DNA of 64,000 bases from an uncultured Gemmatimonadales bacterium (GCA_963741945.1 CAVUKA010000001.1:898560-962559); one strand, 5' to 3'. Positions 5,913-36,972 are shown, counted from the first letter of the stretch. Notes: generated by a model from the letters alone, not told the origin. Program-made: numbers and translations.

Positions 5913-7316
5913 CTACCGCCCGCGCCGGAGCACCCGCTGATGGAACGCGTCGGGCATCGACCGGATGTCCAGTGGCTGCGACGTGCTGTAGTGGCAGTAG
6001 GAGCAGAGGCCCACGTGCGGCACCGGCCCCATGGCGGGCGGTGAGGGCGGCGTCCTTCCGGACACGGCGTATGCCTCCTGCGCCCTGGCCACGGCGTTGC
6101 GGACGAGACGGTCGCTCAACTCCAGGTTGTGCTCACCGCCCGCGCGGGCGACCAGGTCCACATCCGCCCGCGCGGTGGCCAGCAGCGCCCGGGCGCTGTC
6201 CGGCGGATCCGGCAGCGCCTGCTCGGCTTGCCGCAGATACCGCTGCGCCGCGCCGAGCCGGGACTCGACGCCGCTCGTCCACCAGCCGAGCACCTGCGTA
6301 TACTCCTTCTCGTGGCACAGGGCGCACGCCTGCGCCTCGCCCCGGTACGGACCCACCGAGTCGGCTGCCGTCGGGATGTGACAGGACCGACACGTCACGC
6401 CCGCCAGAAACTTCGCGCTGGGCACCACATCCCCTTCCGGAGAGACGCCCAGGATCAGCTGCTGCTGCGCCGCGTGCACGCCCTGGTGGCACGCCGAGCA
6501 CACACTGCTCTCCGGCCACTGCCCGGGGCCATTCAGCTTCACGCCGTGCTCGGACGTGTGACAATCCGAGCAGATCAGGTCCACTGCCGAGCTCATCGCC
6601 GCCACCCGATGCATGTGCTTCTCGTGGCAGGAATTGCAGGTCACACCACTGTGCAGCGGATGGAGATCACGCCCCACGGCTTTCTGGTTCAGCGCGGCAA
6701 TGTCGGTATGGCACTCCCGGCAGCGCGCGCTCGCCACGTCCGTATTCGCCTCCGAGACGTCGTAGTGGCATCGCACGCATCCGATCTCCATCCACGGCAG
6801 CTCCGAATGCGACACCACCACGCCCTGGCTGGTGAAGCGGGAGTGGTTGGGCCGCTGATGGCACACGCGGCAATCCTCCGGGGCGCGGCTGGACACCTGC
6901 GACAGATGACAGAGGGTGCACGCATCCACCGACGGCTCCAGCGGCTCGCCGCCCGCGTCGTGCGTGTGGCACCCCGCGCACGTGGCCTCGACCGGTCCAC
7001 CCTCGCCGTGGTTCCGGTGGCGGAACTCCACCGTGGCCAACCGGACTTCCGGCGGACCGCCGGCTTCGTGGCAGCCGGAAGCCTGGCACGACGATGACGG
7101 AACGGTGGCGCGACCCCGCTCCCCTGCCGGGCCCTGGTGGCACGCGCGGCATGCGAGGTCCGCGTGCGGATCCGCGCGCTGGGCCGAAGCGGCCGGCGCT
7201 GCGGCCACGACCCCCGTGTCGGCGGCGTTCCCTCGCGATGCCCCCGGCCCGGCCGGCTCGCAGCCGGCCAGGGCGGCAGCCAACGCCAGCATCAGCGTCA
7301 GCAGAAGCTTACCCAT
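5913..7316 (-). CDS. periplasmic multihaem c-type cytochrome lipoprotein (12 CXXCH + 1 CX4CH)
   Basis: Start set to ATG 7316 (MGKLLLTLMLALAAALAGC, lipobox). Counted CRACH, CAGCH, CTLCH, CRVCH, CVRCH, CRECH, CNSCH, CSDCH, CSACH, CRSCH, CALCH, CSYCH plus CQASGCH. The upstream part of track ORF 5913..8120 is shadow sequence over the neighbouring gene. Confidence 0.85.
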   Translation of the reverse strand: MGKLLLTLMLALAAALAGCEPAGPGASRGNAADTGVVAAAPAASAQRADPHADLACRACHQGPAGERGRATVPSSSCQASGCHEAGGPPEVRLATVEFRHRNHGEGGPVEATCAGCHTHDAGGEPLEPSVDACTLCHLSQVSSRAPEDCRVCHQRPNHSRFTSQGVVVSHSELPWMEIGCVRCHYDVSEANTDVASARCRECHTDIAALNQKAVGRDLHPLHSGVTCNSCHEKHMHRVAAMSSAVDLICSDCHTSEHGVKLNGPGQWPESSVCSACHQGVHAAQQQLILGVSPEGDVVPSAKFLAGVTCRSCHIPTAADSVGPYRGEAQACALCHEKEYTQVLGWWTSGVESRLGAAQRYLRQAEQALPDPPDSARALLATARADVDLVARAGGEHNLELSDRLVRNAVARAQEAYAVSGRTPPSPPAMGPVPHVGLCSYCHYSTSQPLDIRSMPDAFHQRVLRRGR

Positions 7317-9346
7317 GTCATCATCCCGATCAGCAAGAGACCCAGTCCGAGAGCGAGGAACCCGAGGATGGCGGCCACCAGCGTCTGCCGCCGGTTCGGC
7401 GGCGGCGCGGGGGCATCCTGCTCCTGGTCCGCCGTCATCGCTCCGGCGCTGCGCGCCTCGATGTGGCCCAGGATGCGCGGGTGCTCCTCCTCCATGTACT
7501 CCACCGTCGCGCGGCCCGTGAACATCACCGCATCCAGGGGGAACTTCTCCGGCCGCAAGTGGACGTTGAAGAAGTGGATGGTGAAGATGAACAGGGTGGC
7601 GAGCATGGCCTCGTCGCCGTGCACCACCGTGGCCACGTTGAAGAACCAGCCGGGGACGAACCCGGCGAACAGCTCCGGCAACCAGAGCATGAGCCCCGTG
7701 CCGCCGATGATCGCCACGCCCCAGAACACGGCGAAGTAGTCGAACTTCTCCATGTAGCTGTAGCGCGCGAACCTGGGCCGCGGTCCCAGCCCCAGGAACC
7801 AGCGGAACTGGTTCGTGAAGTCCGTGATGTCCTGCGGGTGCGGCACGATCGAGTCGGGACCCCACAGTAGCCGGCGCCGATCCGGTGCCCGGATCAGTGC
7901 GCGGATCAGGTAGAACAGGTGCGCGGCGAAATAGCCGAACGTGATCGTCGCGCCGACGCGGTGCAGCAGCCCGGCCATGTGCACGCCGCCGAACAGGTGC
8001 ATCAGGCCCGCGGACCACGGCGCGCAGCTGAAGCGCAGTGGCATCCCGGTGAACACGAGCAGGAAGAAGGAGATGATCACCGCGGCGTGCGTCAGCCGGT
8101 GGTACAGCCGGAATCGCCACACGTAGCGCCCCCGCCCGCGCTGCGCCGCATCGAGCGCCACATCCCGGTTCGGCAGGCGGTATCCGTGACCGCTCTTCCC
8201 CCGCGCCGTGTCAATGGCGATGCGCAGGAGCCAGAGCAGCGTGTGCAGCCCGAACATGGCCATGGTCCCGACCAGGAGCCACGTCATGAACTTGTACGCC
8301 CAGTACAGCAGCGGATTGCGGCTCTTCTCGTGCGGATTCGCGTGCGGGTCGAATTTCGCGAACGACGCCGTCGCATCCGGGTGACACGTCCTGCACGTGG
8401 ACACCAGGTTCCCGGGCGCCACCGTCGACTGCGGATTGTCCGCGCCGTGAATCTGATGCGCGCCGTGACAGTCGGCGCAGGTGGCCGTGGCGGTCGAGCC
8501 CAGCGTCGTCGCCTGCCCATGGTATGAGTCCGCGAACGACTCCGCGTACTCCTCGTGGCAGCGCGCGCACGCCTGGACGGTCAGCTCCGCCGCGTGCGGC
8601 CCTGACGGACCCGCCGTCGGGTGGGCGCCATGGCACGCCGTGCACGTGGGCACCTCGACGTTGCTCAGCTCCACCCCGCCGCCGGCGGTCGCCGCCTTCA
8701 GCGCCAGCCCATGGACGTCAGTCTGCCACGCGCTCGCGATGGAGTCGTGGCACGCACCGCACGTACGCGGCTGCGACGCCGGGCTCAGCCTCGACTCGGG
8801 ACGGTCCGGCGGCATCGCCGCGTGCGGCGCATGGCAGGCGTAGCAGGGCGCTTCGCCCGCGTGTGGATCATCATCGCCCAGGCGCTGCGTCTCGTGGCAG
8901 GCGATGCACCGGTCGACCATTGCTGGCATGGCGTCACCGCCCATCTCCAGTGCGGCCGGCCGCGCCACCTGGTGCGTGGTGTGGCACTGCCTGCAGTCCA
9001 CGCCCGTCCGCCCGTCGCCGGCTGCATGCGCCCCCTCCCGCCACGTCGAAGCCACGTCCTCGTGACACGAGGCGCATGTCTGCGACGCCGCCTCCGCCGG
9101 GTGCGGGAACCGGTCGAACCCCGTGTGGCACCGCGAGCACGAGAACCCGGCGTGGGCGGTGCCGTCCAGCAGCGAGTCCGGGACGAGGAGCGCCCGCGCA
9201 TCAGCGAGACTGCGCGTGTGCTGTCTCAGCAGCTCCAGCTCACCGTGGCACTGGGTGCACGTAAGCGCCTGCTGCGCGGAGCCGGGCGACGCCCAGAGGG
9301 CCGCGGCCACCAGCACCGACAGCCCCATCGCGAGTCGGTGTCTCAT
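7298..9346 (-). CDS. multihaem cytochrome c (11 CXXCH) fused to FdnI/HydC-type cytochrome b membrane domain (CbcL-like)
   Basis: Signal peptide MRHRLAMGLSVLVAAALWASPGSAQQ and 11 CXXCH in the first ~330 aa. Then 4-5 TM helices with conserved His (RFRLYHRLTHAAV...FTGMPL, LLHRVGATITF..AAHLFY, VVHGDEAMLATLFIFTIHFF). ATGA overlap with the upstream regulator gene at 9343-9346. Confidence 0.9.
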   Translation of the reverse strand: MRHRLAMGLSVLVAAALWASPGSAQQALTCTQCHGELELLRQHTRSLADARALLVPDSLLDGTAHAGFSCSRCHTGFDRFPHPAEAASQTCASCHEDVASTWREGAHAAGDGRTGVDCRQCHTTHQVARPAALEMGGDAMPAMVDRCIACHETQRLGDDDPHAGEAPCYACHAPHAAMPPDRPESRLSPASQPRTCGACHDSIASAWQTDVHGLALKAATAGGGVELSNVEVPTCTACHGAHPTAGPSGPHAAELTVQACARCHEEYAESFADSYHGQATTLGSTATATCADCHGAHQIHGADNPQSTVAPGNLVSTCRTCHPDATASFAKFDPHANPHEKSRNPLLYWAYKFMTWLLVGTMAMFGLHTLLWLLRIAIDTARGKSGHGYRLPNRDVALDAAQRGRGRYVWRFRLYHRLTHAAVIISFFLLVFTGMPLRFSCAPWSAGLMHLFGGVHMAGLLHRVGATITFGYFAAHLFYLIRALIRAPDRRRLLWGPDSIVPHPQDITDFTNQFRWFLGLGPRPRFARYSYMEKFDYFAVFWGVAIIGGTGLMLWLPELFAGFVPGWFFNVATVVHGDEAMLATLFIFTIHFFNVHLRPEKFPLDAVMFTGRATVEYMEEEHPRILGHIEARSAGAMTADQEQDAPAPPPNRRQTLVAAILGFLALGLGLLLIGMMTWVSFC

Positions 9347-10695
9347 TCGTCCATTCCGTATTTCTTCAGTCGATTCCGAACCTGGTGACGACTCATCCCG
9401 AGAAGCCGCCCCGCTTCCGTCTTGTTCCCTTCCGCACGGCGGAGCGCCTTGGTCAGAAGCTCCTTTTCCAGCTCTTCCACATCGAGACCCTCCGGCCCCA
9501 GATCCAGCGCCCCCCGGCCCCGCCGCCCTTCACCACGCACCTCCGGTGGCAGCATCTCCGGCTTCAGCACCGACCCATCGGCCAGGAGGACCGTGCGCTC
9601 GATCACATTCCGCAGCTCACGCACGTTGCCGGGCCAGCGGTAGCCCTTCAGCAGCTCCATCGCCTCCGGGGAGACGTCCCGGATCTTCCGGCCCAGCTGG
9701 CGGTTGAACTCCTCTATGAACGTCAGGACGAGGGCCGGGATGTCCGAAGTACGCTCCCGGAGCAGAGGCAGCCGGATCGGAAAGACGCGGAGCCGGTAGT
9801 ACAGGTCCTCCCGGAACTCCTCTTTCTCCACTTCCGCCGCCAGGTCGCGATTCGTGGCGGCGATGAGGCGCGCGTCCACCACCAGGTCCTTGGTCCCGCC
9901 CACTCGCCGGAACCGCTTCTCCTCGATGAAGCGCAGCAGCTTCCCCTGGAGCCGGAGCCCCAGCTCTCCGATCTCATCCAGGAACAGCGTGCCGCCATCC
10001 GCCAGCTCCACCAGCCCCCGCTTCATCGTGCGGGCGTCCGTGAAGGCTCCCTTCTCGTGACCGAACAGCTCCGACTCCATGACCGTTTCCGCCAGCGCGG
10101 AGCAGGTCACGTTGATGAAGGGACCGTCGGAGCGCGGACTCGAATGATGGATCGCCTGCGCCAGCATCCCCTTCCCCGTCCCCGTCTCCCCTTCCAGCAG
10201 CACAGTGGTCCCCTCCGCCGGCGCGACCCGCTTCACCAGGTCGAACACTTCCCGCATCGCCGGGCTGCTCCCCACCACGTCCTCGCCCAGCCCTGCCTGC
10301 TCCCGCAGCGCCCGCACCTCCCGCTGCAGCCGCGTACGCTCCAGGGCGCCGCTGATCGTCGCGCTCAGACGGTCGAAGGAGAACGGCTTCTCCAGGTAGT
10401 CCACCGCCCCCGCGCGCAGCGCCCGCACGGCCGATTGCACCGTGCCGTGCGCCGTCATCACTACGCACACCGTCTCGCCCGTGGCCACCAGATCCTCGAG
10501 GAGACCGGTGCTCTCGCCGTCCGGCAGCTTGATGTCCAGCAGCGCCAGGTCGGGCGTGTGCTTCTCCAGCATCGGCCCCACTTCCGCCAGCCTGGACGCC
10601 GTCACCACGGCGTACCCCTCCCGCTCCAGCCGCTCCGCCGTCACCTGCCGGAGCAGATCGTCATCCTCCAGGATCAGGATTCGCGCGTTGGCCAC
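9343..10695 (-). CDS. sigma-54-dependent response regulator (NtrC family: REC - AAA+ - Fis-type HTH)
   Basis: REC (ILILEDDD, LALLDIKLPDG), Walker A GETGTGKG, ESELFGHEKGAFTDA (GAFTGA variant), and C-terminal HTH (AGRLLGMSRHQVRNRLKKYG). GTG start at 10695. Confidence 0.9.
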   Translation of the reverse strand: MANARILILEDDDLLRQVTAERLEREGYAVVTASRLAEVGPMLEKHTPDLALLDIKLPDGESTGLLEDLVATGETVCVVMTAHGTVQSAVRALRAGAVDYLEKPFSFDRLSATISGALERTRLQREVRALREQAGLGEDVVGSSPAMREVFDLVKRVAPAEGTTVLLEGETGTGKGMLAQAIHHSSPRSDGPFINVTCSALAETVMESELFGHEKGAFTDARTMKRGLVELADGGTLFLDEIGELGLRLQGKLLRFIEEKRFRRVGGTKDLVVDARLIAATNRDLAAEVEKEEFREDLYYRLRVFPIRLPLLRERTSDIPALVLTFIEEFNRQLGRKIRDVSPEAMELLKGYRWPGNVRELRNVIERTVLLADGSVLKPEMLPPEVRGEGRRGRGALDLGPEGLDVEELEKELLTKALRRAEGNKTEAGRLLGMSRHQVRNRLKKYGMDE

Positions 10696-12161
10696 TGGTC
10701 CCCTCCCCCGGCTCGGGCGATGCCGCTGGCGACGTCCGTCGCCTCCTCCCTGGCGCTCCCCACTGCCGGCAGCGTGATGCGTACGGTCGTGCCCTTCCCC
10801 TGCGCGCTCTCGATCTCCAGTGTCCCCTCGTGCGCGGCCACCACCCGGGCCACCAGCGGAAGCCCCAGACCCGTCCCGCCGGGCTTCGTCGAGTAGAACG
10901 GCAGAATCACTTTCTCCGTCTCCTCCGCCGCGATCCCCGGCCCGGTGTCCCGGACCTCGATCGCCGCACGCCCACCCTCCGGCCGCACCACCACCGTGAG
11001 AACGCCGCCCGACTCCATCGCTTCCATCGCGTTCAGGAGCAGGTTGAGGACTGCCTGCTCCAGACGATGCTGGTCACCGCGCACCCGCGGTGTGGCCGGG
11101 TCGTATTGCCGGTCCACCCGTCGCCCCGACGTGTCCGTCAGCCCCGCCAGCTGCACCATCGCGCTGTCCACGGCTTCCGCCACCTCGTACTCGTCGGTCA
11201 ACAGCTCCATCGGCTTCGCCAGCGTGAACAGGTCCTGCATCGTCTCCGCCAGCTTCTCCAGCTGCGCGTCCACCGCGCCCAGGAGCGTTTGCGCCTGGTC
11301 GTTCAGCTCGTACTCCTGCTCCAGCAGACCGACCGCCGACCGGATCGACGCCAGCGGACGCTTGAACTCGTGCGCCATCTCCGCCGCCATCTCGCCCACC
11401 TGCGCGAACCCCGCCTGGCTGGCCAGACGCTCCTCCTGCTCCGCCGCCTTCGCAGCCGATTCCCGCTCCTTGCGCACCAGGTCCACCACCGACGCCTCGA
11501 TCCGATCCAGCTCCGCCGAACCCAGTCCCGGCTCCGACGACAGGATCCCCGCCACCCGCTCCATCGGCGTCATCACCTCCCGCTCCAGCATCGTCGCCAC
11601 GATCAGGATCACCGCCGCAACACTCCCGATCAGCAGCAGCAGCCCGAGCTTCGCCGCCCGGTCCATCGCCGCCTCCAGGGGCGCCAGCGAGAAGTCCACC
11701 TCCAGCACCGCCGCACCCCCCGACTTGATCGGAAGAAACGCGTTCACCGCGTCCCCCGACTGCGTCCGCCGCGCCGTGCCACGCGCCGGTAGCTCCACCG
11801 GCGACGGCACCCACACCCCCGGCCGCTTCGTTCCCTCCTCCAGCACGTCCGTCGATACCAGCACCGTCCCCGACGTCCCGTAGACCCGCGCCGCCGTGAT
11901 CGATTCCAGCTGCGCCAGCTCCCGCAACGCCGACCGCGCCCGCGTCGGCTCCCCCGCCGACATCGCCGCCTCCACCGCCGAACGCACCGAAGCCCCGGCC
12001 AGCAGCGCCTGCTGCTCTGCCGCGGCCTCCGACTGCTCGCGCCAGTACCGGAACGTCAGCGGTGACCCGGCGCCGAACACCACCACCGCCGTTCCCACCG
12101 TCGTCAGCACCAGCTTGGTCCGCAGCGGCTGCCTCCGCAGTCGCTCGATCCACCGAATCAC
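10674..12161 (-). CDS. sensor histidine kinase (two TM, periplasmic sensor, HisKA-HATPase)
   Basis: H-box AHEFKRPLASI, N-box NLLLNAMEAM, G-boxes VRDTGPGI and GTGLGL. The track start is TTG 12251. I prefer GTG 12161 (VIRWIERLRRQ), which has GGAGG 4 nt upstream. Start is uncertain. Confidence 0.8.
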   Translation of the reverse strand: MIRWIERLRRQPLRTKLVLTTVGTAVVVFGAGSPLTFRYWREQSEAAAEQQALLAGASVRSAVEAAMSAGEPTRARSALRELAQLESITAARVYGTSGTVLVSTDVLEEGTKRPGVWVPSPVELPARGTARRTQSGDAVNAFLPIKSGGAAVLEVDFSLAPLEAAMDRAAKLGLLLLIGSVAAVILIVATMLEREVMTPMERVAGILSSEPGLGSAELDRIEASVVDLVRKERESAAKAAEQEERLASQAGFAQVGEMAAEMAHEFKRPLASIRSAVGLLEQEYELNDQAQTLLGAVDAQLEKLAETMQDLFTLAKPMELLTDEYEVAEAVDSAMVQLAGLTDTSGRRVDRQYDPATPRVRGDQHRLEQAVLNLLLNAMEAMESGGVLTVVVRPEGGRAAIEVRDTGPGIAAEETEKVILPFYSTKPGGTGLGLPLVARVVAAHEGTLEIESAQGKGTTVRITLPAVGSAREEATDVASGIARAGGGDQWPTRES

Positions 12162-12303
12162 CCGACCTCCGACGCCCGTGTCCTTGCGCGCGACTTCGCG
12201 CAATGTGTCGCCTGTAACCTGCGCGGTTCCGCGCACTCCGGTAGGGGGCAAACTACGCGGAAAATCGCGGGGGATTCCCCGACACTACCACGGCCACGAC
12301 GCC

Positions 12304-12374: not shown

Positions 12375-13544
12375 TCAGCCGATGATCAGGAGCGCGGCGA
12401 GGGCGGTGGCATGGGCCACGAGCGCGGAGCCGAAACCGCGTCGCCAGAAGAGGAATCCGAAGGCGAGGGCGGGCACGGCCACCGTCGCCAGGACGAAGCC
12501 GGCGGTCATGGAAGCGCTCGGGAACCCGATCGCCATCACGCCGGGCAGGTAGATCAGGACCTGGGCGAGGGCACCGACGCCCACGGCCAGGGCGGCCGCG
12601 CGGCCGCCGCTCATGTGGAGCTCGCGGAGGAGCAGCCAGGTGACGGCCGTGACCAGGAAGAGCCGCAGCAGGACCTCGTCCAGGAGCGCGGTGGTCAGCA
12701 CGCCGGAGAGGCTGCTGGCCGGGAGCACATAGGCGCCCTGGTAGAAGGGAAGCGCGATCAGTGCCATGCCCACGCCCACCAGGACGGCCACTGCGATGCT
12801 CACGGCCGCGCTCCGCGTGCCACCGAACGCCACGCTGGGGGCCTGCACGGGCAGCCGCTCCAGCAGGATCAGCGACACCGTGACCAGCGGACCCGCCAGC
12901 CACAGCGTTGCGGTCACCGCCAGCAGCACCGCGCCCACCGGCGTCACGCGCAGGTGCACGCCCCAGAGCTCAGGCCGCTCCGCCAGGAACAGCGCCAGCA
13001 GGCCACCGAACAGCGCCGCAACGATCAGCGTGCCGGCCCGCGCGTTCGACCATGAGGCGTATGCACCCCGGATCCCGGTCCACCCCTGCTCGATCCCCAG
13101 CACCACCATCCCGATCCCGACCAGCCACGCCACCCCACACCCGATCAGCGGGGCCATCTTCCCCGTGTACAACGCGACTGACGTCATCCCGATCCACCCC
13201 GCCAGCAGCCACGACACCAGGAGCGCCGGAACCGCGTACACCGCAGCTAGCCCAAGCTGCCCCAGTGCCGCACGCCGATTCACGCCCTCCGGGCGGCCCA
13301 TCCATCCCAGCACCGCCCCGTGCGCGAACCCGAGCCCCGCACCCACCACGAACAGACCGCTGCACGTCAGAAGCAGCGCATGCCCGCTCAGCTTCCCTGC
13401 CAGCGTCATCGCCGCCACCAGGAAGCCACCCGTCAGCACGCCCCCCGCCGCCGCCCAGCTCACCGCTATTTTGCCAACCGGACCGATGCCCCGCCCCAGC
13501 GGGCTCGCTCCCTGGCTCGTGCCTTCCATCGTCGTCGTCGTCAT
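12375..13544 (-). CDS. polytopic membrane protein, function unknown; C-terminal region weakly CPBP (CAAX-protease)-like
   Basis: 389-aa ORF, hydrophobic throughout (about 10 TM by eye). DEVLLR resembles the CPBP EExxxR motif, and a later His sits in FGSALVAHATAL. The other CPBP motifs are not clear. Confidence 0.6.
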   Translation of the reverse strand: MTTTTMEGTSQGASPLGRGIGPVGKIAVSWAAAGGVLTGGFLVAAMTLAGKLSGHALLLTCSGLFVVGAGLGFAHGAVLGWMGRPEGVNRRAALGQLGLAAVYAVPALLVSWLLAGWIGMTSVALYTGKMAPLIGCGVAWLVGIGMVVLGIEQGWTGIRGAYASWSNARAGTLIVAALFGGLLALFLAERPELWGVHLRVTPVGAVLLAVTATLWLAGPLVTVSLILLERLPVQAPSVAFGGTRSAAVSIAVAVLVGVGMALIALPFYQGAYVLPASSLSGVLTTALLDEVLLRLFLVTAVTWLLLRELHMSGGRAAALAVGVGALAQVLIYLPGVMAIGFPSASMTAGFVLATVAVPALAFGFLFWRRGFGSALVAHATALAALLIIG

Positions 13545-13705
13545 CCTCGCCTCCCAGATCGAGGCCCGGTGCTCCGGGCCGTTGCTTCCGACCTTTCCTA
13601 AGTCAAGTCCGGGACCACTCCGGATTTGGACGACGTATTTCCTTTGCTACCAATGGCTTATGGCATTTCGTGCCGGGATCGTCCAGGGTCGGTGCGAGCC
13701 CGGAT

Positions 13706-13745
13706 CGCGCGATATCGCGCGGTTCGGCGCGCGTTAACGCGCGCC
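13706..13745. repeat. two adjacent perfect GC-rich palindromes in an intergenic region
   Basis: CGCGCGATATCGCGCG (13706-13721) and GGCGCGCGTTAACGCGCGCC (13726-13745). Each is its own reverse complement. Confidence 0.8.
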
Positions 13746-13918: not shown

Positions 13919-14410
13919 TCACGGACTCGTTTCGAGCGGTCCGGGGAGCCTGGTGCTGTCGGAGAGGATCTCGGGGCGGAGCTGATGCAGGATGTAGAAG
14001 GCGGCCGCATCGACTTGGCGGGGGGTGAGGCGCGAGATGCCCCAGCCCGGCATTCCGCCTCTGTGCCCGGTGAAGATCACGCGGCGCAGCTCCGCGATGC
14101 TGTCGAACCGGAACCCGGGGTCCACCAGAGACGGGGGGTGGAGGTCATACTCGCGGTCATAGTCGGTGTCGCCCCGGCCGACGGGGCCGTGGCAGCGGCG
14201 ACATATCTGCGCGAAGACCATGTTGCCGGCGTCCACGCGCTGGCGGTCGGATGCCCATTCGAGAGTGTCGAACATCGCCGGCGTGTATGCGCTGTCGGCG
14301 GCCTCGATGCGGGACTCTTCGGAGGGCGGCGAGAACTTGTGGTCTCCGCACGCGGAGAGCACGAGCGTCGCGGCGAGGGCGATGGAGAGGAGGGCTGACG
14401 AGCGGATCAT
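13919..14410 (-). CDS. monohaem class-I-like cytochrome c lipoprotein
   Basis: Start ATG 14410 (MIRSSALLSIALAATLVLSAC, lipobox). Single CRRCH with a downstream Met-containing segment (GGMPGW). ATGA overlap with the upstream gene at 14407-14410. Confidence 0.8.
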   Translation of the reverse strand: MIRSSALLSIALAATLVLSACGDHKFSPPSEESRIEAADSAYTPAMFDTLEWASDRQRVDAGNMVFAQICRRCHGPVGRGDTDYDREYDLHPPSLVDPGFRFDSIAELRRVIFTGHRGGMPGWGISRLTPRQVDAAAFYILHQLRPEILSDSTRLPGPLETSP

Positions 14411-14784
14411 CGCTCCGGCGACCGATCGGGATGGATCAGGCTTGCGCCGGGCGCCAGCTGCTGGGCCACGCTCATGGCGGAGTCGGCGCCGGCGGTGTTG
14501 CCGAGCGCGAGCTCGGCCATGTAGATGCCGAACCAGGCGGCAGCGAGGTCGGGCTGAAGCTCGACGGCCTGCCGGTACTGCGCGAGCGCGGCCTCGTAGT
14601 TGTTGGCGCGGTACGCGGCATTGCCGCTGTCCAGGGCGGCCGACACACCAGCAGGCAGGTTCGCGCGCTCGCTCTTCACCTCTTCGGCGCTGATGCTCCC
14701 GGTCTCCTGGTCGTCCGCGGAACCGCCGCACGCGCTGAGCGTGAGAACGGCGAGAAAGCCGATGCAGGCGACGCTGCGCTTCAT
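14407..14784 (-). CDS. small TPR-like lipoprotein
   Basis: Start ATG 14784 (MKRSVACIGFLAVLTLSACGG, lipobox). TPR-like helices (GNAAYRANNYEAALAQYRQAVELQPDLAAAWFGIYMAELALGN). ATGA overlap with the upstream stop at 14781-14784. It occupies the tail of track ORF 14407..16560. Confidence 0.7.
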   Translation of the reverse strand: MKRSVACIGFLAVLTLSACGGSADDQETGSISAEEVKSERANLPAGVSAALDSGNAAYRANNYEAALAQYRQAVELQPDLAAAWFGIYMAELALGNTAGADSAMSVAQQLAPGASLIHPDRSPER

Positions 14785-15542
14785 TTCCCCTCCGCGAGCT
14801 GAGTGCCGGCGCCGGGCTCCGGCCGGGCGGCCGTGGCCCGAGGGCGAGGCAGCACGTGGCATGCCTCGCAGTTCTCGCCGGGATTGTGGTTGACCATGCC
14901 CTGATGGCAGACCAGGCAGAAGGTGCGCGTCCGCGGCACCGAGGCCACGCTCGGTGGCGCAGCCTGGTGGCACCCGGAGCCGGCGCACCCGAGGTGGACC
15001 TGCGTATTGTGCGCCTGCGGCTTCGGCTGCGGATGGCACGCCATGCAGTTGCGCTGCGGCTGATGGTGCGCCGTGTGGCACTTCGAGCAGTCGACGTCCG
15101 CGGCACTCAGGGCGGTGCCGCCGGTGTGACAGTTCGTGCACGCCAGGCCCTCGTGGACCCGGTGCTGGAACGGCAGCGTCCGCACGGGCCGGTTCAGCGT
15201 TCCGATGGTGATGTCCATGGTCCGACGCACGCGAACCGTGAGCGATCGTACGGTCCGCTGACCATGACACCGCGTGCAGCTCGAGGCTACGGGCAGCGTG
15301 TGGTGGCACGACCGGCAGTCCTGGATGCTCGTGACCGTCAGCGCCCCGTGCTCGCGCTGCATGGAGTGACACGCCGTACAATCCACTCCCCGGTGCTGCG
15401 CGTGGTGAAACGTCACTGTGTCCTGCGGCGGCGCCAGCTCGGCCGAGACGCGCCGGATCCGCGTCGGCCGGGGCCGCCTCCTCGCCGTGAGCGGCGAGAG
15501 CCAGCCGGACGATGCCGGGATCGAGCGGACCGGCGGAGGCAA
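14781..15542 (-). CDS. multihaem cytochrome c module, c3/c7-like (8 CXXCH + 1 CX4CH); 5' boundary unresolved
   Basis: CTACH, CRSCH, CTRCH, CTNCH, CSKCH, CMACH, CLVCH, CEACH plus CAGSGCH. TVTFHHAQH..CTACH is typical of c3/c7 modules. The only start candidate is TTG 15542. This frame is closed by TGA at 15567-15569. Confidence 0.7.
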   Translation of the reverse strand: MPPPVRSIPASSGWLSPLTARRRPRPTRIRRVSAELAPPQDTVTFHHAQHRGVDCTACHSMQREHGALTVTSIQDCRSCHHTLPVASSCTRCHGQRTVRSLTVRVRRTMDITIGTLNRPVRTLPFQHRVHEGLACTNCHTGGTALSAADVDCSKCHTAHHQPQRNCMACHPQPKPQAHNTQVHLGCAGSGCHQAAPPSVASVPRTRTFCLVCHQGMVNHNPGENCEACHVLPRPRATAARPEPGAGTQLAEGK

Positions 15543-16560
15543 CCTGGATCGGGCCGCTGCGACGGATCATGGACAGCGGCCGTACCGGAGGCGGCGCATC
15601 CGTCTGGTAGATGTCCTGGTGACACTCCAGACAGTCGTGGCCGGTGGCATGGATCCGGAACTCGTGCGCCTTGTGGCAGTTGATGCAGTTCTCCAGCACG
15701 CCCGGGTCCAGCCCACGGTGGTACGGCGTCAGCGTATCCGGCTGGGAATGACAGCCGCCCTGGGAACACGATTGCACCGCCTGCTGCGGCGTGGTCTGCC
15801 GGTGCGGATCGTGGCACGCACCGCATTTCGCGTTGTGCGGCTCATCCGCCGGGAAATCCTTGACCAGCGCCCGCATCTGATGGCAGGACAGGCACTCGCT
15901 CGCGTCCGGCCGGATCGCGCTGGCCAGCTGGGCCGGCGTGGCCTCCTGCCCCACCTGCACCGTGAAGTCGTGACACGTGGCGCAGTGGATCGTGAGATTG
16001 CCCATCTTCCCGAGCCGGATCCGGGTGTTCTCGTGACACCCGGCCTGCCCGCACGTCTGGTCCGTGGGAGTGAACTCGTGCAGCCCCGAGGAATGGCACT
16101 CCACGCATTTCAGACCCTGCAGCGACGGGTCGTCCGACTGCATGTGGATCCGGTGCCCGGCCGTGTTCGCGACCTGCCGCCACTCTTCGGGGTTGCCCTT
16201 GATGTGGCACTCTGCGCACGCCGAGTTGGGCACGCTCGCGTGCGCCGTCAGCTCCTTCGGCTGCTCGACGATCTGCTTGAGCCCCATCTCGCTGCGCTGG
16301 ACGATGTTCGGGTGATGACAGGCCTTGCACCCGAGCCCCCGGTGCGCACTCTTCGCGAATCGCTGATACGGATCCTGCATGAGGTGGCATTGCAGGCAGA
16401 ACTGGTTGTCGTGCTGCACGTAGTTGTAGGTCCGGTACATGAAGACCGAGCCTACGGCCAGTGCCGCCAGGACAACCACACCACCCACCACCTGCACCCC
16501 GGTGGGGAGAGCGCGCAGACGCGCGACGAGCTTCGTTAGAAGTGCTCCAAGCCGAGTCAT
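15541..16560 (-). CDS. NapC/NirT/NrfH-family membrane-anchored multihaem quinol-dehydrogenase-like module (9 CXXCH + 2 CX4CH); 3' boundary unresolved
   Basis: N-terminal TM (VVGGVVVLAALAVGSVFMY) followed by FCLQCHLMQDPYQRFAKSAHRGLGCKACH, the NapC/NirT signature arrangement. Haem motifs stop near nt 15600, but there is no in-frame stop until 14407. The end given here is nominal (340 codons). Confidence 0.7.
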
Positions 16561-25152: not shown

Positions 25153-28100
25153 TGCCCATGGCCACTCCTCCGCCGGAAAGCCTGTCCCACCTTTCACCCG
25201 CGGCCCGCGATCTACTCGCCCGCCGTTCCCGCGCGGACGAATCGTCCTCAGCGGGCAGCGAGCCACTCAGGCATCGGCCGGGGGCCACCGAAGCTCCGCT
25301 CTCCTTCGGACAACAGCAGGTCTGGTTCTTTGAGCAGCTCGAGCCAGGCAGCGCGGTCTATCACCTGCCGAAGGAAGTGCGACTGCGCGGCCCTCTGGAC
25401 GTCCCGGCGCTCGAGCGGGCGCTCGGCGAGGTTGTCCGCCGACACGAGATCTTGCGCACGCGCTACGGCACGCTGGCCGATGGCGCGATCCGCCAGCTCG
25501 TCCTCCCGGCGGCCGGACGAGTGGAATTGCCGTGCGTCGATGTGACCGCGTCGGCAACGCAAACGGACGAGCCGTCGGACGGCACCCTGGCGCAACCCGA
25601 AGCGCTGGCCAGGGGCGAAGGCTCGCCGTGGCGGCGACAGGTCGGCCTCGATGCGCTGCGGCCCTTCGATCTTGCGGCCGGAGAAGTCTTGCGGGCAAAG
25701 CTGTATCGCTTCGGGTCCGAGGACCACCTGCTTCACCTGGTCTTCCACCACATTGCGTTCGACGGCTGGTCGATGGGAGTGTTCCTGCGCGATCTCGCCA
25801 GCGCCTACGGGGGCGCGCTGCGAGGGGATGCGACGTTGCCGCCTCTCCCGATCCAGTACGGCGACCATGCAGCCTGGGAAGTGAGTCGGCTGGAATCGGG
25901 CAGGTTCGATGACGTCATCGACTACTGGCGACGGCGCCTTCGCGGCGCTCCGCCGGAGTCGACCTTCCCTGCATCCCGTCCGCGGCAGGTGGACCGGACG
26001 TATGCGGCGGCACAGGAGCATCGCCGGCTCCCAGACCACCTGAAGAGCGCTCTCCATGACATGGCCCGTCGACAGAACGCCACCGAGTCCGCCGTGCTCC
26101 TGGCCGCGTTCCAGGTCCTCCTGGCCCGCCACTCCGGGGCGCGGGACGTCGTCGTGGGCGTGCCCGTCGCCGGCCGCACCCGCAGTGAGCAGGAGGACCT
26201 CGTAGGCTATTTCGTCAACATGTTGCCCGCTCGGTTGGACCTTGCCGACGACCCTTCGTTTCGTCAGGTGGTCGACCGGGTCCGGACCGGGCTCCTCGAG
26301 GGCTTCGACCATCAGACCGTGCCGTTCGACCGCATAATCTCCGACCTGCGCGTACATCGCGATGCCGGGATCACGCCGCTCTTCCAGGTGGCGTTCAACG
26401 ACCGGATTCTCCCGAACCAGGGAGCAGAGTTCGAAGGCCTGGACGTGGAGATGCGCGCTGGCTTCCACGCCCGGCACCTGCTTGATCTCAGCCTGGAGGT
26501 CGGGCACGTGGCCGGGACAATCGAGTGCGATCTGACGTACAGCCTGGAGCTGTTCGATCCGGGGTACGCCCGTACCCTCCTCCCTCAGCTCGAAACGGTT
26601 CTCCAGGCAATGATCGCCGACCCTGACGCCGCCATTACAGCGGCTCCCCTTCTTCGGCCGGCGGAGCGCTCACGCATCATCGAAGCGGGCCGGGGTCCCC
26701 GACGTCCAGTTCCTCCTTCGACCCTGATCCACGAGCTGGTGCAGGAGCAGGCCGCTCGGGACCCGGAAGCCAGCGCCATCATCGGTGACGAGGAAACGCT
26801 CACGTACGGAGAGATGAGGCGGCGGGCTGCAAGCCTCGCTGCGCGCCTGCGTAACGCGGGAATCGCCCCGGAGACGCGCGTCGGGGTCTTCGTCGACCGG
26901 TCTCCCGGACAGATCGTCGCCCTCCTCGGGGTCCTCGAGGCGGGCGGCGCCTACGTCCCCCTCGACCCATCCTATCCGCGGGAACGCCTGGCCTTCATTG
27001 CCCATGACTCGGGGATGGAGGCGATCGTCACGACGCGGCGGCTTCGCTCGCGCGTCCCCCTCGATTCGATCCCCGCCCTCTGTCTGGATGACCCGTCCAC
27101 GCCCGACGGCTCCGACGCGGCACCTGCCAGCGTCATCAGGAACGTGCCGTCGGACCCGCTGGCGTACATGATATACACATCCGGCTCCACGGGGACGCCG
27201 AAGGGAGTGGAAGTTACGCACGCCTCGGTGGCGAACCTCGCTGCGGCGGAGCGTGACCTGCTCCGCGTCGCGCCGGCCGATCGCGTGCTGCAGTTCTCGA
27301 CAATCAATTTCGACGTGTCCGTGGCCGAGATCTTCACATCCCTCACGGCCGGTGCGGCCGTGGTGGTGTGCACTCCCTCGATGCTCACATCCGTCCCGCA
27401 GTTCGTGCGCGCGTGCGAGGCGAAGGGTGTGACGCTGCTCTCCATGAGCACCGCCCTCTGGCACGAACTCGTGGTGTCTCTGGCCGAAGGCGATGTCGAG
27501 ATGCCGCCCGCCGTGAGAACCGTGATGATCGGGGGTGAAGCCGCGCGCCCGGACCGCCTTGAACTGTGGCGACGCCACGGCTCGGGCATACCCCTCATCA
27601 ACGGCTATGGACCTACCGAGACCACGGTCTTCGCAACTGCCCAGGACCTGACTCACCCGGTGGCCGGGGAGGACGCCGTTGTTCCGATCGGGCGCCCGCT
27701 GCACAACGTGGATGTACACGTCCTTGACGAGCGGATGGCTGTAGTGCCGGCCGGCGTTCCCGGAGAGCTGTACATCGGTGGCCTGTGCGTCGGCCGGGGT
27801 TACCATGATCGCCCGGAGTTGACCGCGGAGCGGTTCCTTCCGGATCCGTTCTCCGCACGACCGGGGGGACGCCTGTACAGGACGGGAGACATCGTGCGGC
27901 GACGCGAGGATGGCGCCCTGGACTTTCTCGGCCGTCGAGACAACCAGGTCAAGATCCGCGGGTTCCGCATTGAGGCCGGTGAGATCGAGGTGGCAATGGC
28001 TGCGCATCCCTCCGTGCGCACCGCCGTTGTCGTGCCGCGGCCCGATGGCGTGGGTGATCTCCGGCTCGTGGCCTACGTGGTGCCGGCCAGTGGCGTGTTC

Positions 28101-31100
28101 GACCGGCGCGTTCTCGCTGACCACCTCCGACGGTCGCTTCCCGAGTACATGATTCCGACGGCCTTCGTGCGACTCACGGAGCTCCCCCTCCTGCCCAATG
28201 GCAAGGTCGACCGGAAGGCACTTCCGGAACCTGATCCGGTTGGGGAAGCCGCGTTCGAGCCACCCCGGGGCCCCCGCGAGAGCGCGCTGTGCGAGATCTG
28301 GGAGAACGTGCTCGGTGTGCAGCCGATCGGACGGAACGTGGACTTTTTCGATGTCGGCGGCCACTCGCTGTCTGCCATGCTGGTCGTCGGCCGCGCGGAG
28401 GCGGCGCTCGGGATGGAGGTGCCGCTCCGGGCGATCTTTGAGCACCGCACCGTAGCGCGCCTGGCGGCCTTCCTGGAACGTGCAGAACGGGAACGGGGAG
28501 CTCTGTTCCCGCCGATCGAGACCGGGACCGATGTACCCGCCCCGCTCTCCTTTGCGCAGCGACGTCTGTGGTTTCTCGATCGGCTGGCACCGGGAAGACC
28601 AACGTACAACATCCCACTCGCGTTCCAGCTCCGCGGCCACCTTGATCCCTCAGCACTGCGCAGCGCCTTGCGACGGATCGTGGAGCGGCACGAGCCGCTG
28701 CGCTCATGGATCCGCGAGGGCGTCAGCGGACCCGTCCAGGTCGTCGCGCCTGCCGACCTGTTCGAGCTCGCCGTCGAAGAGGTCCCGGGGGGTCCTGAAG
28801 ACTCCCAACCCCGGGTGCTGCGCCGCCTGGAGGAGGAGGCGCACCGTGCGTTTCAGCTCTCGGACGAAATCCCGTTTCGCGCTCATCTCTTCCGGCTGGG
28901 CGCGCGCGAGCACGTGCTCTTCCTCTGCCTTCATCACACCGCTGCGGACGGCTGGTCCGTCGACATCCTCTTCGCGGAGCTTGAAGCGCTCTACGGCGCC
29001 GCCCTCGCCCGTGCGGAGCCGGACCTGCGGGCGCTCCCGGTCTCCTATTCCGACTACGCGAAATGGCAGCATCGGCACGAGGGTCTCCTGCAACCGGGCC
29101 TCGAGCGTTGGGTGAAGCGACTTCAGGGTGCGCGTGCGCTGGAGCTGCCCGTCGACCGCCCGCACACAGGAGTGCAGAGCGGCGCGGGCGGGGAGAGTCG
29201 AGCGCGGCTGGACGGCCACGTTCTGGAAGAACTGCGCGATCTCGCGCGAAGTGAGCAGACCACTCTCCACGTGGCACTATTGACTGCGTTCCACGTCATG
29301 CTTTCCCGGCTCAGCGGCCAGGATGACATCGTAGTCGGCACGCCCGTGGCGGGCCGCGTTCGGCCGGAGCTCGAGCCGCTCGTCGGCATGTTCGCCAACA
29401 CGGTCCCCATTCGCGTGGACCTCTCCGGCGAGCCGTCGTTCCTCGAAGCCTTGCGCCGTGTCCGCGCCGTGACCCTGGCGGTCTACGGTGATGAGGCAGT
29501 GCCGCTCGAAGCCATGGTGGAGGCCAGTGGGGTCGAGCGCGACGGCAGCGCCAATCCTCTGATCCAGGTGGCATTCGCGCTGGCAGCGGACGGTCGACGA
29601 GCGCCCCGGCTGCACGGTCTCGAGGTGGAGGACCTGGAGCTGCAGACGGCTACCGCGAAGTTCGACCTGTACCTCGCGGCCAATCCCAATGCCGATGGTC
29701 TTGCGCTGCGTCTCGAGTACGATGCGGACCTCTTCCAGGGCCGCACCGCCGCGCACCTCCTCGAGCTCTTCAAAACGCTGGTGTCCGCGGCTGTCGCGGA
29801 TCCCGAACGCCCCTTGGCGGATATCGACCTCTCCGACGACGAGGAGCGCCAATGGGCCGTCGACTGGAACCGGACCGAGCGGCCGTTCCCCGGCGACACG
29901 GTGCACGAGCTGTTCACCACGGTGGCCGCACGTACACCCGACGCTGTGGCCGTGGAGGACCCACACGAGCGACTTACATACGCAGACCTGGATGGCCGAA
30001 GCGCAGCGCTGGCCGGGCAGCTGGTGTCGCTGGGGGTGGAGGCGGGCGAGCGGGTCGGCGTGTTCATGGAACCGGGCGCGCCGCTGGTGGTTTCCATGCT
30101 GGGCATTCTTCGGGCGGGCGCCTGCTACGTTCCGCTCGACCCCGCACTCCCTGGCCAGAGACTGGCGCTCCTGATCGAGGACGCGGGCATCCGGCACGTA
30201 GTGGCGTCCGGCCGGGTTCCCCCCGGCCTCCGGGCGACGGGCGTCGAGATCGTGGAGGCCCGCGACGGTCGCGACCAGCGCCTCCGCGACGTGGCCCGGC
30301 CCGCTTCTGTCGCCGCAACCGCGAATGACCTCGCCTACGTCCTCTACACCTCCGGCAGCACGGGCCGGCCCAAGGGCGTGGCCGTACCGCATCGGGCAAT
30401 CGTCCGATTGGTTCGGAACTCCGACTATGTCGACCTCCGGACCGATGACGTGGTGGCGCAGGTCTCCACCCCCAGCTTCGATGCCGCCACATTCGAGATC
30501 TGGGGAGCGCTGCTGAACGGCGCCCGGCTGACCATCCCGGACAGCCGCCTGCTCTCGCCCCGGGAGCTCGAGGGGTTCCTTCGCGACCGAGGAGTGACAA
30601 CGCTGTTTCTGACCACGGCGCTCTTCAACCAGGTGAGCCGGGAGCGCCCCGCTGCATTCGGATCTCTGCGCCAGCTCCTCTTCGGTGGGGAGACCGCCGA
30701 CGCGGAGGCCGCCCGGCGCGTCCTGGATGGCGGCGCCCCGCCGAAGCGCCTGCTGCACGTCTACGGGCCTACCGAAAACACGACATTTTCAACTTGGTAC
30801 GCCGTCCAGCACGTACCGCCCGGTGCCGCCACACTGCCGATCGGGCGCCCGATCGCCAATTCCACCGCGTGGGTCATGGACGCGCGAGGAAAGCTGCAGC
30901 CACGGGGACTCTGGGGCGACCTGTACGTGGGCGGCGTGGGCGTGGCCGCCGGCTATCTCGGGGCGGCCGCGGCTGAGGCCGACCGTTTCGTTCCGGACCC
31001 GTTCGCAAATGCGCCCGACCGCCGGCTTTACCGGACCGGAGACCGCGCGCGCTGGAACCTGGATGGCGAACTCGAGTTTGGCGGTCGACTCGACACCCAG

Positions 31101-33556: not shown

Positions 33557-35191
33557 GTGAGTTTCAAGAATCTGGGCACGCGGATCGCCCTGACCGCGGG
33601 TTTTTTCACGCTCGTCAGCGTGGGGCTCCTTTCGTTCATCCTGGTCCAGCGTCAGCGGGAGCAGGTGCGGGCGGAGGTCGTGCATGGCTCGGAGAGCCTG
33701 GCGGACGCCATCGCGCTGAGTGTGCACCGGGACATGCAGCTGAACCACCGCGGGGGCGTCCGCGAGATGCTCGAGACGGTAGGCCAGCACGAAGGCATCG
33801 CCGGCATTCGCCTGTACAACCGTGAAGGCCGCATCTCCTACTCTTCCGACCCGGCCGAAGTCGGGCGGGTGGTGCCCCGGAGCTCCGAAGCCTGCGTGAC
33901 GTGCCATGCCAACGGGCAGGCGACGGCAACCGTGGAGCCGGACCGCCGCTGGCGCATCTTCACGGGGCAGGATGGGGAGCGCCTGCTCGGGACGATCCAC
34001 GTGATCCGCAACGAGCCCGGGTGTCAGGGAGCCGGGTGCCACGCGTCGCCGGCACAGCAGAGCGTGCTCGGAGTCCTGGATGTGGCCATGTCCATGGCGC
34101 CCGTGGAGCGCCGCCTGGCCTCCGACACCCGCGACGCGCTCCTGATCTCCCTCCTCGCCGTCGCGGTGATCACGCTCCTCCTCGTGCTCCTGGTGCGCCG
34201 GAGCGTGCGTCGCCCGATCCAGCGGATGGTGAGCGCCACGCGGCGGATGGTGGAGGAGACGGGGTCGCTCCCCGTGCCCCGCGGGACGGCACCGGAGATC
34301 GCGATCCTGGCCGAGTCCTTCAACGAGATGATCGAGAGCCTGGCGAGCTCGAAGCAGCGCCTCGAGGACTGGGCGGAAACGCTCGAGGAGCGCGTCTCCT
34401 CGAAAGCGCAGGAGCTCCGGGAAGCCCAGTTCGAGGTGCTCCAGGCGGAGAAGCTCTCCTCCGTCGGCCTGGTAGCGGCCGGGATCGCCCACGAGCTGAA
34501 CAGCCCGCTCATGGCCATCATCACCTTCTCGCACCTGGTCAAGTCGGCCGTGCCCGATGACGAGGGCGCGCAGGAGGACCTCCGCATGATCGAGCGGGAG
34601 GCGAACCGCTGCGCGGCCATCATCCGGCAGCTCCTCGACTACTCGCGTAAGCAGGCGGAAGACCCGGAGACCCACCCCCAATCCGTGGCCCCGGTGCTCG
34701 AGCGGGCGCTCGAGCTGGTGAAGGTGGAGCTTCAGAATGGCGGCTTCCGGGTGACGACCGAGCTGTCGCCCGACCTCCCCTCCGTCGAGGTGAACGATCA
34801 GCAGCTCATGCAGGTGTTCGTCAACCTCATCATGAACGCGCTCCACGCCATGGGCGACGACGGTGGCGAGATCCTGTTCCGGGGCGACACCGTGCGGCGC
34901 GACGATTTCCCGAACGTGGACTGGCCGCTCCACGGTGGCACCGAAGCCGTCCGCATTCGCGTCCGGGACACCGGGCCCGGGATCGCGCGGGAGAAGTTCT
35001 CGAAGATCTTCGATCCGTTCTACACGACCAAGCCGGTGGGCCAGGGCTCCGGCCTCGGACTCGCCGTATCCCTCGGGATCGTACGCGGCTATCGGGGTAC
35101 GATCATGGTGGACAGCGATGGCGAGTCGTGGACGGAGTTCACGATCCTCTTGCCGACGGCGGAGAACCCTGCAATGGCCTTGACCTCATGA
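33557..35191 (+). CDS. sensor histidine kinase with extracytoplasmic domain carrying c-type haem-binding motifs
   Basis: GTG start with GGAGG upstream. TM1 (FFTLVSVGLLSFILV), sensor region with CVTCH (33893-33907) and CQGAGCH (34022-34042), then TM2 (LLISLLAVAVITLLLVLLV). HAMP-like linker, H-box AHELNSPLMAI, NLIMNALHAM, VRDTGPGI, GSGLGL. Confidence 0.85.
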   Translation: MSFKNLGTRIALTAGFFTLVSVGLLSFILVQRQREQVRAEVVHGSESLADAIALSVHRDMQLNHRGGVREMLETVGQHEGIAGIRLYNREGRISYSSDPAEVGRVVPRSSEACVTCHANGQATATVEPDRRWRIFTGQDGERLLGTIHVIRNEPGCQGAGCHASPAQQSVLGVLDVAMSMAPVERRLASDTRDALLISLLAVAVITLLLVLLVRRSVRRPIQRMVSATRRMVEETGSLPVPRGTAPEIAILAESFNEMIESLASSKQRLEDWAETLEERVSSKAQELREAQFEVLQAEKLSSVGLVAAGIAHELNSPLMAIITFSHLVKSAVPDDEGAQEDLRMIEREANRCAAIIRQLLDYSRKQAEDPETHPQSVAPVLERALELVKVELQNGGFRVTTELSPDLPSVEVNDQQLMQVFVNLIMNALHAMGDDGGEILFRGDTVRRDDFPNVDWPLHGGTEAVRIRVRDTGPGIAREKFSKIFDPFYTTKPVGQGSGLGLAVSLGIVRGYRGTIMVDSDGESWTEFTILLPTAENPAMALTS

Positions 35192-36722: not shown

Positions 36723-36747
36723 GGGTGTATATCCTTCGCATACACCC
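36723..36747. promoter_or_regulatory. upstream activator site candidate 1 (GTGTAT-N9-ATACAC palindrome)
   Basis: GGGTGTAT-ATCCTTCGC-ATACACCC, with perfect 8-bp inverted arms. Confidence 0.55.
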
Positions 36748-36838: not shown

Positions 36839-36861
36839 GGTGTATACGGTCTGTATACACT
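36839..36861. promoter_or_regulatory. upstream activator site candidate 2 (GTGTAT-N9-ATACAC palindrome)
   Basis: GTGTAT (36840-36845), 9-nt spacer, ATACAC (36855-36860). Same core and spacing as site 1; centres are 115 bp apart. Confidence 0.55.
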
Positions 36862-36954: not shown

Positions 36955-36972
36955 TGCGGCACGACCGTTGCC
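36955..36972 (+). promoter_or_regulatory. sigma-54 (-24/-12) promoter
   Basis: tgcGGCACGaccgTTGCc: GG at 36958-36959 and GC at 36970-36971 (12-nt offset) fits TGGCACG-N4-TTGC. It lies about 45 nt upstream of ATG 37014 and downstream of the two palindromes and an AT-rich stretch (36921-36950). Confidence 0.7.

Follow-up and report, generated by a model that had tools for sequence, protein, structure and literature searches.

The 64,000-nucleotide stretch of DNA analysed here (the window), from an uncultured Gemmatimonadales bacterium (GCA_963741945.1 CAVUKA010000001.1:898560-962559), contains two genes, referred to below as A and B, that each encode a multiheme cytochrome c domain fused to a diheme cytochrome b domain in the membrane. 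The two products are probably single-polypeptide quinol:cytochrome-c oxidoreductases of the inner membrane and members of the CbcL/MtrH/MtoC family. The window has a G+C content of 69%, and those close relatives that carry names are metagenome-assembled genomes (MAGs) of Longimicrobiales, Gemmatimonadales and Gemmatimonadota.

The 11 CXXCH motifs of A lie between residues 30 and 322 and the 15 motifs of B between residues 44 and 417. In both proteins a hydrophobic N-terminus precedes the CXXCH region, and no CX3CH, CX4CH or CXXCK variants were seen in either sequence. A preliminary description of the window had reported both open reading frames (ORFs), and its coordinates (Table 1) and motif counts were exactly borne out; the start codon of B may be the ATG at 38120, and the database copy of B is 751 amino acids (aa) long. 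The same description had proposed that A and B have a C-terminal membrane domain in common, with four aligned blocks. When the two proteins were compared by BLASTP, 557 residues aligned with 28% identity (E = 2e-52), and as this alignment covers all four blocks the likeness between A and B is far beyond chance.

A common membrane domain in two lineages

The membrane domains of A and B belong to the FdnI/HydC family by both sequence and fold. The domain of B scores 45.9 bits against the Pfam family PF01292, for which the cut-off is 30.1. A profile generated from 14 membrane domains gave one meaningful match in the Protein Data Bank, to Escherichia coli FdnI (1kqf_C, E = 1.9e-10), and the same chain was the top Foldseek match for the AlphaFold2 models of A and B (probability 1.00 for both; target TM-scores 0.74 and 0.77). 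The second Foldseek match for the B model was the cytochrome b of E. coli hydrogenase-1. The model of A has a mean predicted local distance difference test score (pLDDT) of 87.2 and a predicted template modelling score of 0.77, while the pLDDT of the B model is 71 overall and 80–92 in the membrane part.

Four candidate ligand histidines, H420, H462, H576 and H591 in A and the equivalent H510, H552, H659 and H674 in B, are invariant in all 29 of the diverse relatives compared, and also within each clade. In the profile alignment these invariant positions coincide with H18, H57, H155 and H169 of FdnI, the residues that ligate its two b hemes. The suggestion in the preliminary description that the conserved histidines suit two b hemes agrees with this result. 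The same description had made its proposal depend on the membrane domains lying within the FdnI/HydC family, where PF01292 (for B), the 1kqf_C profile match and Foldseek all place them, and on the axial histidines being conserved in relatives, as they are throughout. A and B have in common with FdnI, HydC and HyaC a four-helix diheme b bundle with four axial histidines. The identity of A and B to FdnI is however only 18–20%; both proteins gain an N-terminal transmembrane (TM) helix, A alone gains a C-terminal one, both have a fused c domain, and the FdnGH partners are absent beside them.

CbcL is described in the literature as containing nine N-terminal c hemes and six TM helices, and its first TM helix contains a fifth histidine (bioRxiv 10.1101/2021.04.15.440034). 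Sequences for comparison were obtained with a query assembled from machine-read pieces of a published CbcL alignment (PMC9129911); this query matched only five short fragments, which then served as seeds for a genome scan. The scan returned the CbcL orthologues of Geomonas propionica Red259 (616 aa) and Trichlorobacter thiogenes (615 aa), both of which contain nine CXXCH motifs; both species are included in the published alignment of CbcL relatives with more than 65% identity (PMC9129911). A is 35–36% identical to these orthologues over about 600–626 aa (E = 1e-114 to 1e-122), while B is only 25–26% identical to them. Compared with Desulfuromonadales-like CbcL membrane-domain fragments, of which one is from Desulfuromonas thiophila, the membrane domain of A is 45–49% identical, a closer match than that between A and B. 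A neighbour-joining tree built on the membrane domains places A on the same deep branch as CbcL and puts B on the other.

A is a member of the CbcL clade with two extra hemes. Like CbcL it consists of an N-terminal periplasmic multiheme c domain and a C-terminal FdnI-like diheme b domain, has no accessory catalytic subunits and contains six TM helices, which in the model span residues 345–381, 414–438, 455–486, 531–555, 567–596 and 652–681. There are five conserved histidines, one apiece in TM helices 1, 2 and 3 and two in helix 5, plus H596. The fifth histidine, H368 in the first TM helix, is kept by 28 of the 29 relatives, the CbcL orthologues among them, and H596 and the hydrophobic C-terminal helix are common to every sampled member of the CbcL branch. 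All 11 CXXCH motifs of A are invariant in 42 homologues, as are 11 histidines of the c domain outside the motifs (65, 82, 107, 125, 162, 175, 212, 242, 276, 297 and 335). These histidines suggest that the 11 c hemes of A are bis-His ligated, which would be a further likeness to CbcL. Homologues of similar length contain 11 hemes in 40 of 41 cases, and other relatives of A contain 9, 14, 19, 21 or 23. The two hemes that A has in addition to the nine of CbcL are placed at the N-terminus by BLAST and in the middle by MAFFT. A also differs from CbcL in its genetic setting, as it shares an operon with genes for a kinase and a sigma-54 activator while cbcL is reported to be constitutive, and a 12-heme lipoprotein gene follows downstream.

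B is the more divergent of the two when compared with CbcL. It contains 15 hemes, and its model has five TM helices followed by a charged tail, so that the six helices of CbcL are found in A and not in B; a strongly hydrophobic C-terminal segment is likewise absent in most of the sampled members of the B clade. The equivalent of H596 is replaced in B and its clade. At the column of the fifth histidine B has Tyr or Ile, depending on the alignment, and its clade varies between I, H and N; B H470 lies four residues past this column. Most of the full-length B-clade members examined contain 15 CXXCH motifs, and the motifs are conserved within the clade. The clade is sharply bounded, with about 50 clusters at 38–82% identity followed by a drop to 30%, and all of its members that carry names are Gemmatimonadota. 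Around it in the tree are stand-alone cytochrome b proteins as well as a group of fusions that are more distant. The position of B on the other deep branch, together with the sharp boundary of its clade, makes A and B ancient paralogues, and the deep-branch split rules out a recent duplication. The preliminary description had matched the architecture of both proteins to Geobacter CbcL: the fused architecture holds for both and A lies within the CbcL clade, but B does not share that branch.

A number of additional observations were made on these proteins and their relatives. The invariant H335 of A lies just ahead of the first TM helix. A H476, 14 residues past the ligand H462, is conserved in both the A and the B clade and is Ala or Thr in Geobacterales CbcL, and H596 is conserved on the CbcL branch only; in B the extra conserved histidines are H431 and H566. 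Four proteins that are 39–43% identical to A (P0015, P0032, P0034 and P0035; 1133–1142 aa) consist of a sigma-54 regulator fused in frame to a CbcL-like protein. The single named one among them is from Gemmatimonadales. In all four the HTH domain runs into the core of the signal peptide without a stop codon, where the window genes instead overlap as ATGA, and these fusions could be either real membrane-tethered proteins or artefacts of gene calling. A CbcL-like gene of 642 aa with six CXXCH motifs is present in a record titled Campylobacter jejuni isolate_S4 (L059); the taxon is unexpected and may reflect contamination.

Gene neighbourhoods and regulatory elements

A is the fourth gene of an operon that begins with a membrane protein of no known family, followed by a histidine kinase and a sigma-54 response regulator, and ends with the 12-heme lipoprotein gene C12. 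The membrane protein has no Pfam or NCBIfam match. The kinase has two TM helices and no CXXCH motif, and the stop codon of the regulator overlaps the ATG of A as ATGA (9343..9346). The order of the operon is retained in the sister genome (L087), where the A orthologue is 85% identical, and also in distant relatives with two or three tandem CbcL-like genes (L081 and L084). Downstream of the CbcL-like gene or genes, L081, L084 and L087 each contain a C12-like cytochrome, and these cytochromes range from 468 to 502 aa (38% identical in L081/L082). Upstream of the first gene, a GG-N10 element is found 49–58 nt before the ATG at four loci (the window, L087, L081 and L084).

The tandem arrangement itself, in which two or three CbcL-like genes lie behind a kinase and regulator pair, was seen in L081, L082 and L084. 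The c domain of the first copy is there called as fused to the regulator, and its b domain is a separate gene of 297 aa.

The B cassette begins with a kinase and a sigma-54 regulator; past an intergenic region come a small ORF, a receiver-domain protein and then B itself. L088 and L089 repeat this order in full, while L083 shows the cassette from a C-terminal fragment of the regulator onward, at a contig end; this fragment, found by tblastn, covers 101 residues and is 70% identical. The B orthologues at these three loci are 82%, 56–58% and 47% identical to B. The periplasmic domain of the kinase, between its two TM helices, contains a CXXCH motif at C113 and a CX4CH motif at C155–H161. The orthologues in L088 and L089 retain both, and on the basis of these motifs the kinase may sense through a periplasmic c-type heme. 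The receiver-domain protein is directly ahead of every B-type gene examined. The small ORF gave no family match in Pfam/NCBIfam-type scans.

The intergenic region of the B cassette contains two copies of the palindrome GTGTATA-N7-TATACAC, of which 0.03 would be expected in the window. They are 113–117 bp apart at all four loci, and a sigma-54 -24/-12 promoter lies 116–117 bp past the second. The sigma-54 consensus is not enriched across the window (45 matches against 57 expected), so only sites that are conserved in position were considered meaningful. The regulatory evidence is stronger for B than for A. No intrinsic terminators were found downstream of B or C12.

The layout of the B cassette resembles that of CbcBA and BccR in Geobacter sulfurreducens, in which a sigma-54 promoter, one or more hypothetical genes, a response-regulator gene and a bc cytochrome are found together with an activator of receiver, AAA+ and HTH domains encoded alongside. 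This likeness is drawn from the layout of the genes. CbcB is reported to have no sequence homology to CbcL and to contain four TM helices and three histidines, the fourth ligand being provided by CbcA, whereas B itself bears all four ligands.

A further membrane cytochrome is encoded close to the A operon. The part of this region with nine CXXCH motifs matches the NCBIfam NrfH model (E = 9e-17), and an ORF with eight motifs follows in another frame. In the sister genome (L087:2695-4510) the frame break is elsewhere, past residue 228, and the remainder is one ORF. The region probably represents one gene, of about 590 aa and 17 hemes, that is split by a different indel in each assembly, and its product is a putative second type of quinol dehydrogenase in the window.

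Other observations concern genes that border these regions. The NrfH-like cytochrome is separated from the A operon by genes for a monoheme cytochrome c lipoprotein and a small TPR lipoprotein, an arrangement that is syntenic in L087. Just upstream of the B cassette is a large ORF resembling a nonribosomal peptide synthetase, whose counterpart in the sister genome contains Condensation, AMP-binding and PP-binding domains. In one Gemmatimonadota MAG (L089:1-1349) a multiheme cytochrome of 468 aa, the length of the L087 C12 orthologue, is directly upstream of the B-type cassette, so A-type and B-type modules may be adjacent there.

Table 1. Positions of genes, domains and regulatory elements in the window, counted from its first nucleotide
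Feature	Position	Strand	Details
Gene C12, 12-CXXCH lipoprotein	5913..7316	minus	467 aa; 19-nt overlap of its start with the end of A
Gene A, CbcL-clade cytochrome bc fusion	7298..9346	minus	682 aa, 11 CXXCH, six TM helices; from ORF and motif count, CbcL-orthologue alignment and AlphaFold2
A, membrane diheme b domain	7301..8326	minus	Residues 341–682
A, signal peptide and periplasmic 11-heme c domain	8327..9346	minus	Residues 1–340
Sigma-54 response regulator, A operon	9343..10695	minus	Receiver, AAA+ and HTH domains (Pfam)
Histidine kinase, A operon	10674..12251	minus	Pfam HisKA and HATPase_c; start uncertain
Polytopic membrane protein, first gene of A operon	12375..13544	minus	389 aa; syntenic in L081, L084 and L087
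Sigma-54-type promoter, tentative	13603..13617	minus	TGGTCCCGGACTTGA; 58 nt before the first A-operon gene
Two GC-rich palindromes, tentative	13706..13744	minus	GCGCGCGTTAACGCGCGC and CGCGCGATATCGCGCG; candidate activator-binding sites, partly conserved in L087
Monoheme cytochrome c lipoprotein	13919..14410	minus	Cytochrome_CBB3
Small TPR lipoprotein	14407..14784	minus
NrfH/NapC-type membrane-anchored multiheme cytochrome	14781..16560	minus	9 + 8 CXXCH in two frames
NRPS-like ORF	25377..32579	plus	About 2400 aa
Histidine kinase, B cassette	33557..35191	plus	Pfam HAMP, HisKA and HATPase_c
Sigma-54 response regulator, B cassette	35188..36651	plus	Pfam; syntenic in L088 and L089
Upstream palindrome 1	36725..36745	plus	GTGTATATCCTTCGCATACAC; conserved in L088, L083 and L089
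Upstream palindrome 2	36840..36860	plus	GTGTATACGGTCTGTATACAC
Sigma-54 -24/-12 promoter	36957..36971	plus	CGGCACGACCGTTGC
Small conserved ORF	37074..37442	plus	122 aa; 63% identical in L083; ORF at the same position in L088 and L089
Receiver-domain protein	37478..38095	plus	205 aa; Pfam Response_reg, hydrophobic C-terminal segment
Gene B, cytochrome bc fusion	38117..40375	plus	752 aa, 15 CXXCH (15 hemes), five TM helices

Proposed electron path and alternative functions

CbcL-type enzymes are the point at which electrons leave the quinone pool for periplasmic or extracellular acceptors. The oxidation of quinol by A and B, the direction in which electrons would move, their partners and a link to extracellular acceptors are here proposed by analogy with FdnI and CbcL. 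In such a scheme a Sec signal would export the N-terminal multiheme c domain of both proteins, one helix would then bring the chain back to the cytoplasm, and the FdnI-type four-helix bundle that comes next would hold two stacked b hemes on the four invariant histidines. Menaquinol would be oxidised at a site on the cytoplasmic side near a b heme, as in FdnI, with electrons passing through the two b hemes across the membrane and out along the wire of periplasmic c hemes. For A the next carrier would probably be the co-transcribed 12-heme lipoprotein C12. The fact that A and B are each the output of their own histidine kinase and sigma-54 activator points to use of the two enzymes under different conditions.

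A number of points weigh against this reading. The membrane domain of A is under the Pfam threshold for PF01292 and has only weak NCBIfam FdnI matches, and the models of A and B are heme-free, the ligands having been assigned from alignment and fold. The comparison with CbcL was made through orthologues of GSU0274, and the function of CbcL has been established only in G. sulfurreducens. The -12 GC of the sigma-54 element ahead of the A operon is degenerate in both the window and L087, for which reason the element is regarded as tentative. About half of the 48 genes called in the window were scanned, and in this half neither a porin nor an outer-membrane conduit of the MtrB type was identified. 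Finally, CbcL/MtrH/MtoC members occur among Fe(III) reducers as well as Fe(II) oxidisers (PMC6295460), so that membership does not fix the direction of flow.

This last point raises the question of whether A and B could operate in reverse as quinone reductases, drawing electrons from a donor in the periplasm or outside the cell, for example Fe(II), into the quinone pool as has been proposed for MtoC. A family that spans metal reducers and metal oxidisers, with no known sequence signature of direction (PMC6295460), would allow for this, and a FdnI-type bundle can in principle run both ways. Nevertheless A clusters with the CbcL quinol oxidases of Geobacterales, and its 11 hemes are apparently bis-His ligated, a form of ligation that in CbcL results in a low potential of about -0.19 V. 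As the scanned genes of the window also include no identified mtoA/mtoB-like genes, reverse operation is considered unlikely. Somewhat greater weight, though still well short of an even chance, is given to A and B being general periplasmic electron hubs similar to CymA, which would serve soluble or periplasmic terminal reductases and not an extracellular acceptor. The lack of an identified outer-membrane conduit among the scanned genes would be explained in this way, the window encodes an NrfH-like cytochrome and a monoheme cytochrome c nearby, and the neighbours of related genes include monoheme cytochromes c, NapC/NirT-type cytochromes and Crp-type regulators. However, a terminal reductase gene was identified neither next to A or B nor elsewhere among the scanned window genes, and the conserved partner of A is a large multiheme lipoprotein of a kind typical of long-range electron relays.

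Two further readings would take A or B away from respiratory quinol oxidation. Because a receiver-domain protein and a small ORF lie ahead of B in every case, with a kinase and activator pair upstream, B could be mainly a redox-sensing or signalling part of its two-component cassette and not a bulk respiratory enzyme. We regard this as very improbable, as the kinase has heme c sensor motifs of its own, the four b-heme ligands and 15 heme c sites are kept across the B clade, and the respiratory cbcBA operon of Geobacter also holds hypothetical genes and a response regulator. Relatives are annotated as cytochrome b subunits of formate dehydrogenase, and the fold does match FdnI, which would suit proteins that anchor an enzyme of the formate dehydrogenase or hydrogenase type in the membrane. 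Genes for molybdopterin, NiFe or FeS subunits are however not adjacent to A or B, no catalytic FdnGH or NiFe genes are adjacent in any related locus examined, and the electron partner is already fused to the protein in the form of a multiheme c domain. With no catalytic genes nearby, this reading is rejected as having almost no chance of being correct. We retain the assignment of A and B as probable quinol oxidoreductases, and suggest more tentatively that B might define a self-contained redox-switch module, so far found only in Gemmatimonadota. In this module a periplasmic heme c sensor kinase would activate a sigma-54 regulator, and the regulator, by binding to the two GTGTATA-N7-TATACAC sites, would switch on a 15-heme quinol oxidoreductase that is without the extra histidine proposed to gate CbcL.

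Position within the family and significance

The fused CbcL/MtrH/MtoC architecture has been surveyed previously in 15 phyla, including one Gemmatimonadetes homologue, by Zhong and Shi 2018 (PMC6295460). The survey reports 3–23 heme motifs per protein, six TM helices in most members and five in some, and cytochrome genes that are often adjacent (PMC6295460). A and B have the traits of this family, namely a signal peptide with a multi-CXXCH domain, a fused diheme b domain and the heme b histidines; the likeness to MtrH and MtoC is drawn from their descriptions. As the architecture had already been surveyed, A and B add members to a known family. Of greater interest are the sigma-54 cassettes dedicated to these genes and the B clade, which is so far known from Gemmatimonadota alone. 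Neither the sigma-54 two-component cassettes nor a 15-heme clade confined to Gemmatimonadota is described in the passages of that survey consulted (PMC6295460).

A and B are candidate markers of anaerobic or metal-linked respiration in a poorly understood phylum of soils and sediments. The preliminary description had raised the idea that the differing heme numbers might adjust the two periplasmic domains to different potentials or partners. The pair also provides a natural comparison for the effects of the fifth histidine, the sixth helix and the number of hemes on working potential, and the regulation of B can be tested directly through its conserved palindromes, its promoter and the heme-motif kinase. 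To our knowledge, extracellular respiration has not been demonstrated in Gemmatimonadota. If the proposed B module is correct, it would form, together with the A operon and the NrfH-type cytochrome, a branched and transcriptionally switched quinol-oxidase system in this phylum, analogous to that of ImcH, CbcL and CbcBA in Geobacter.

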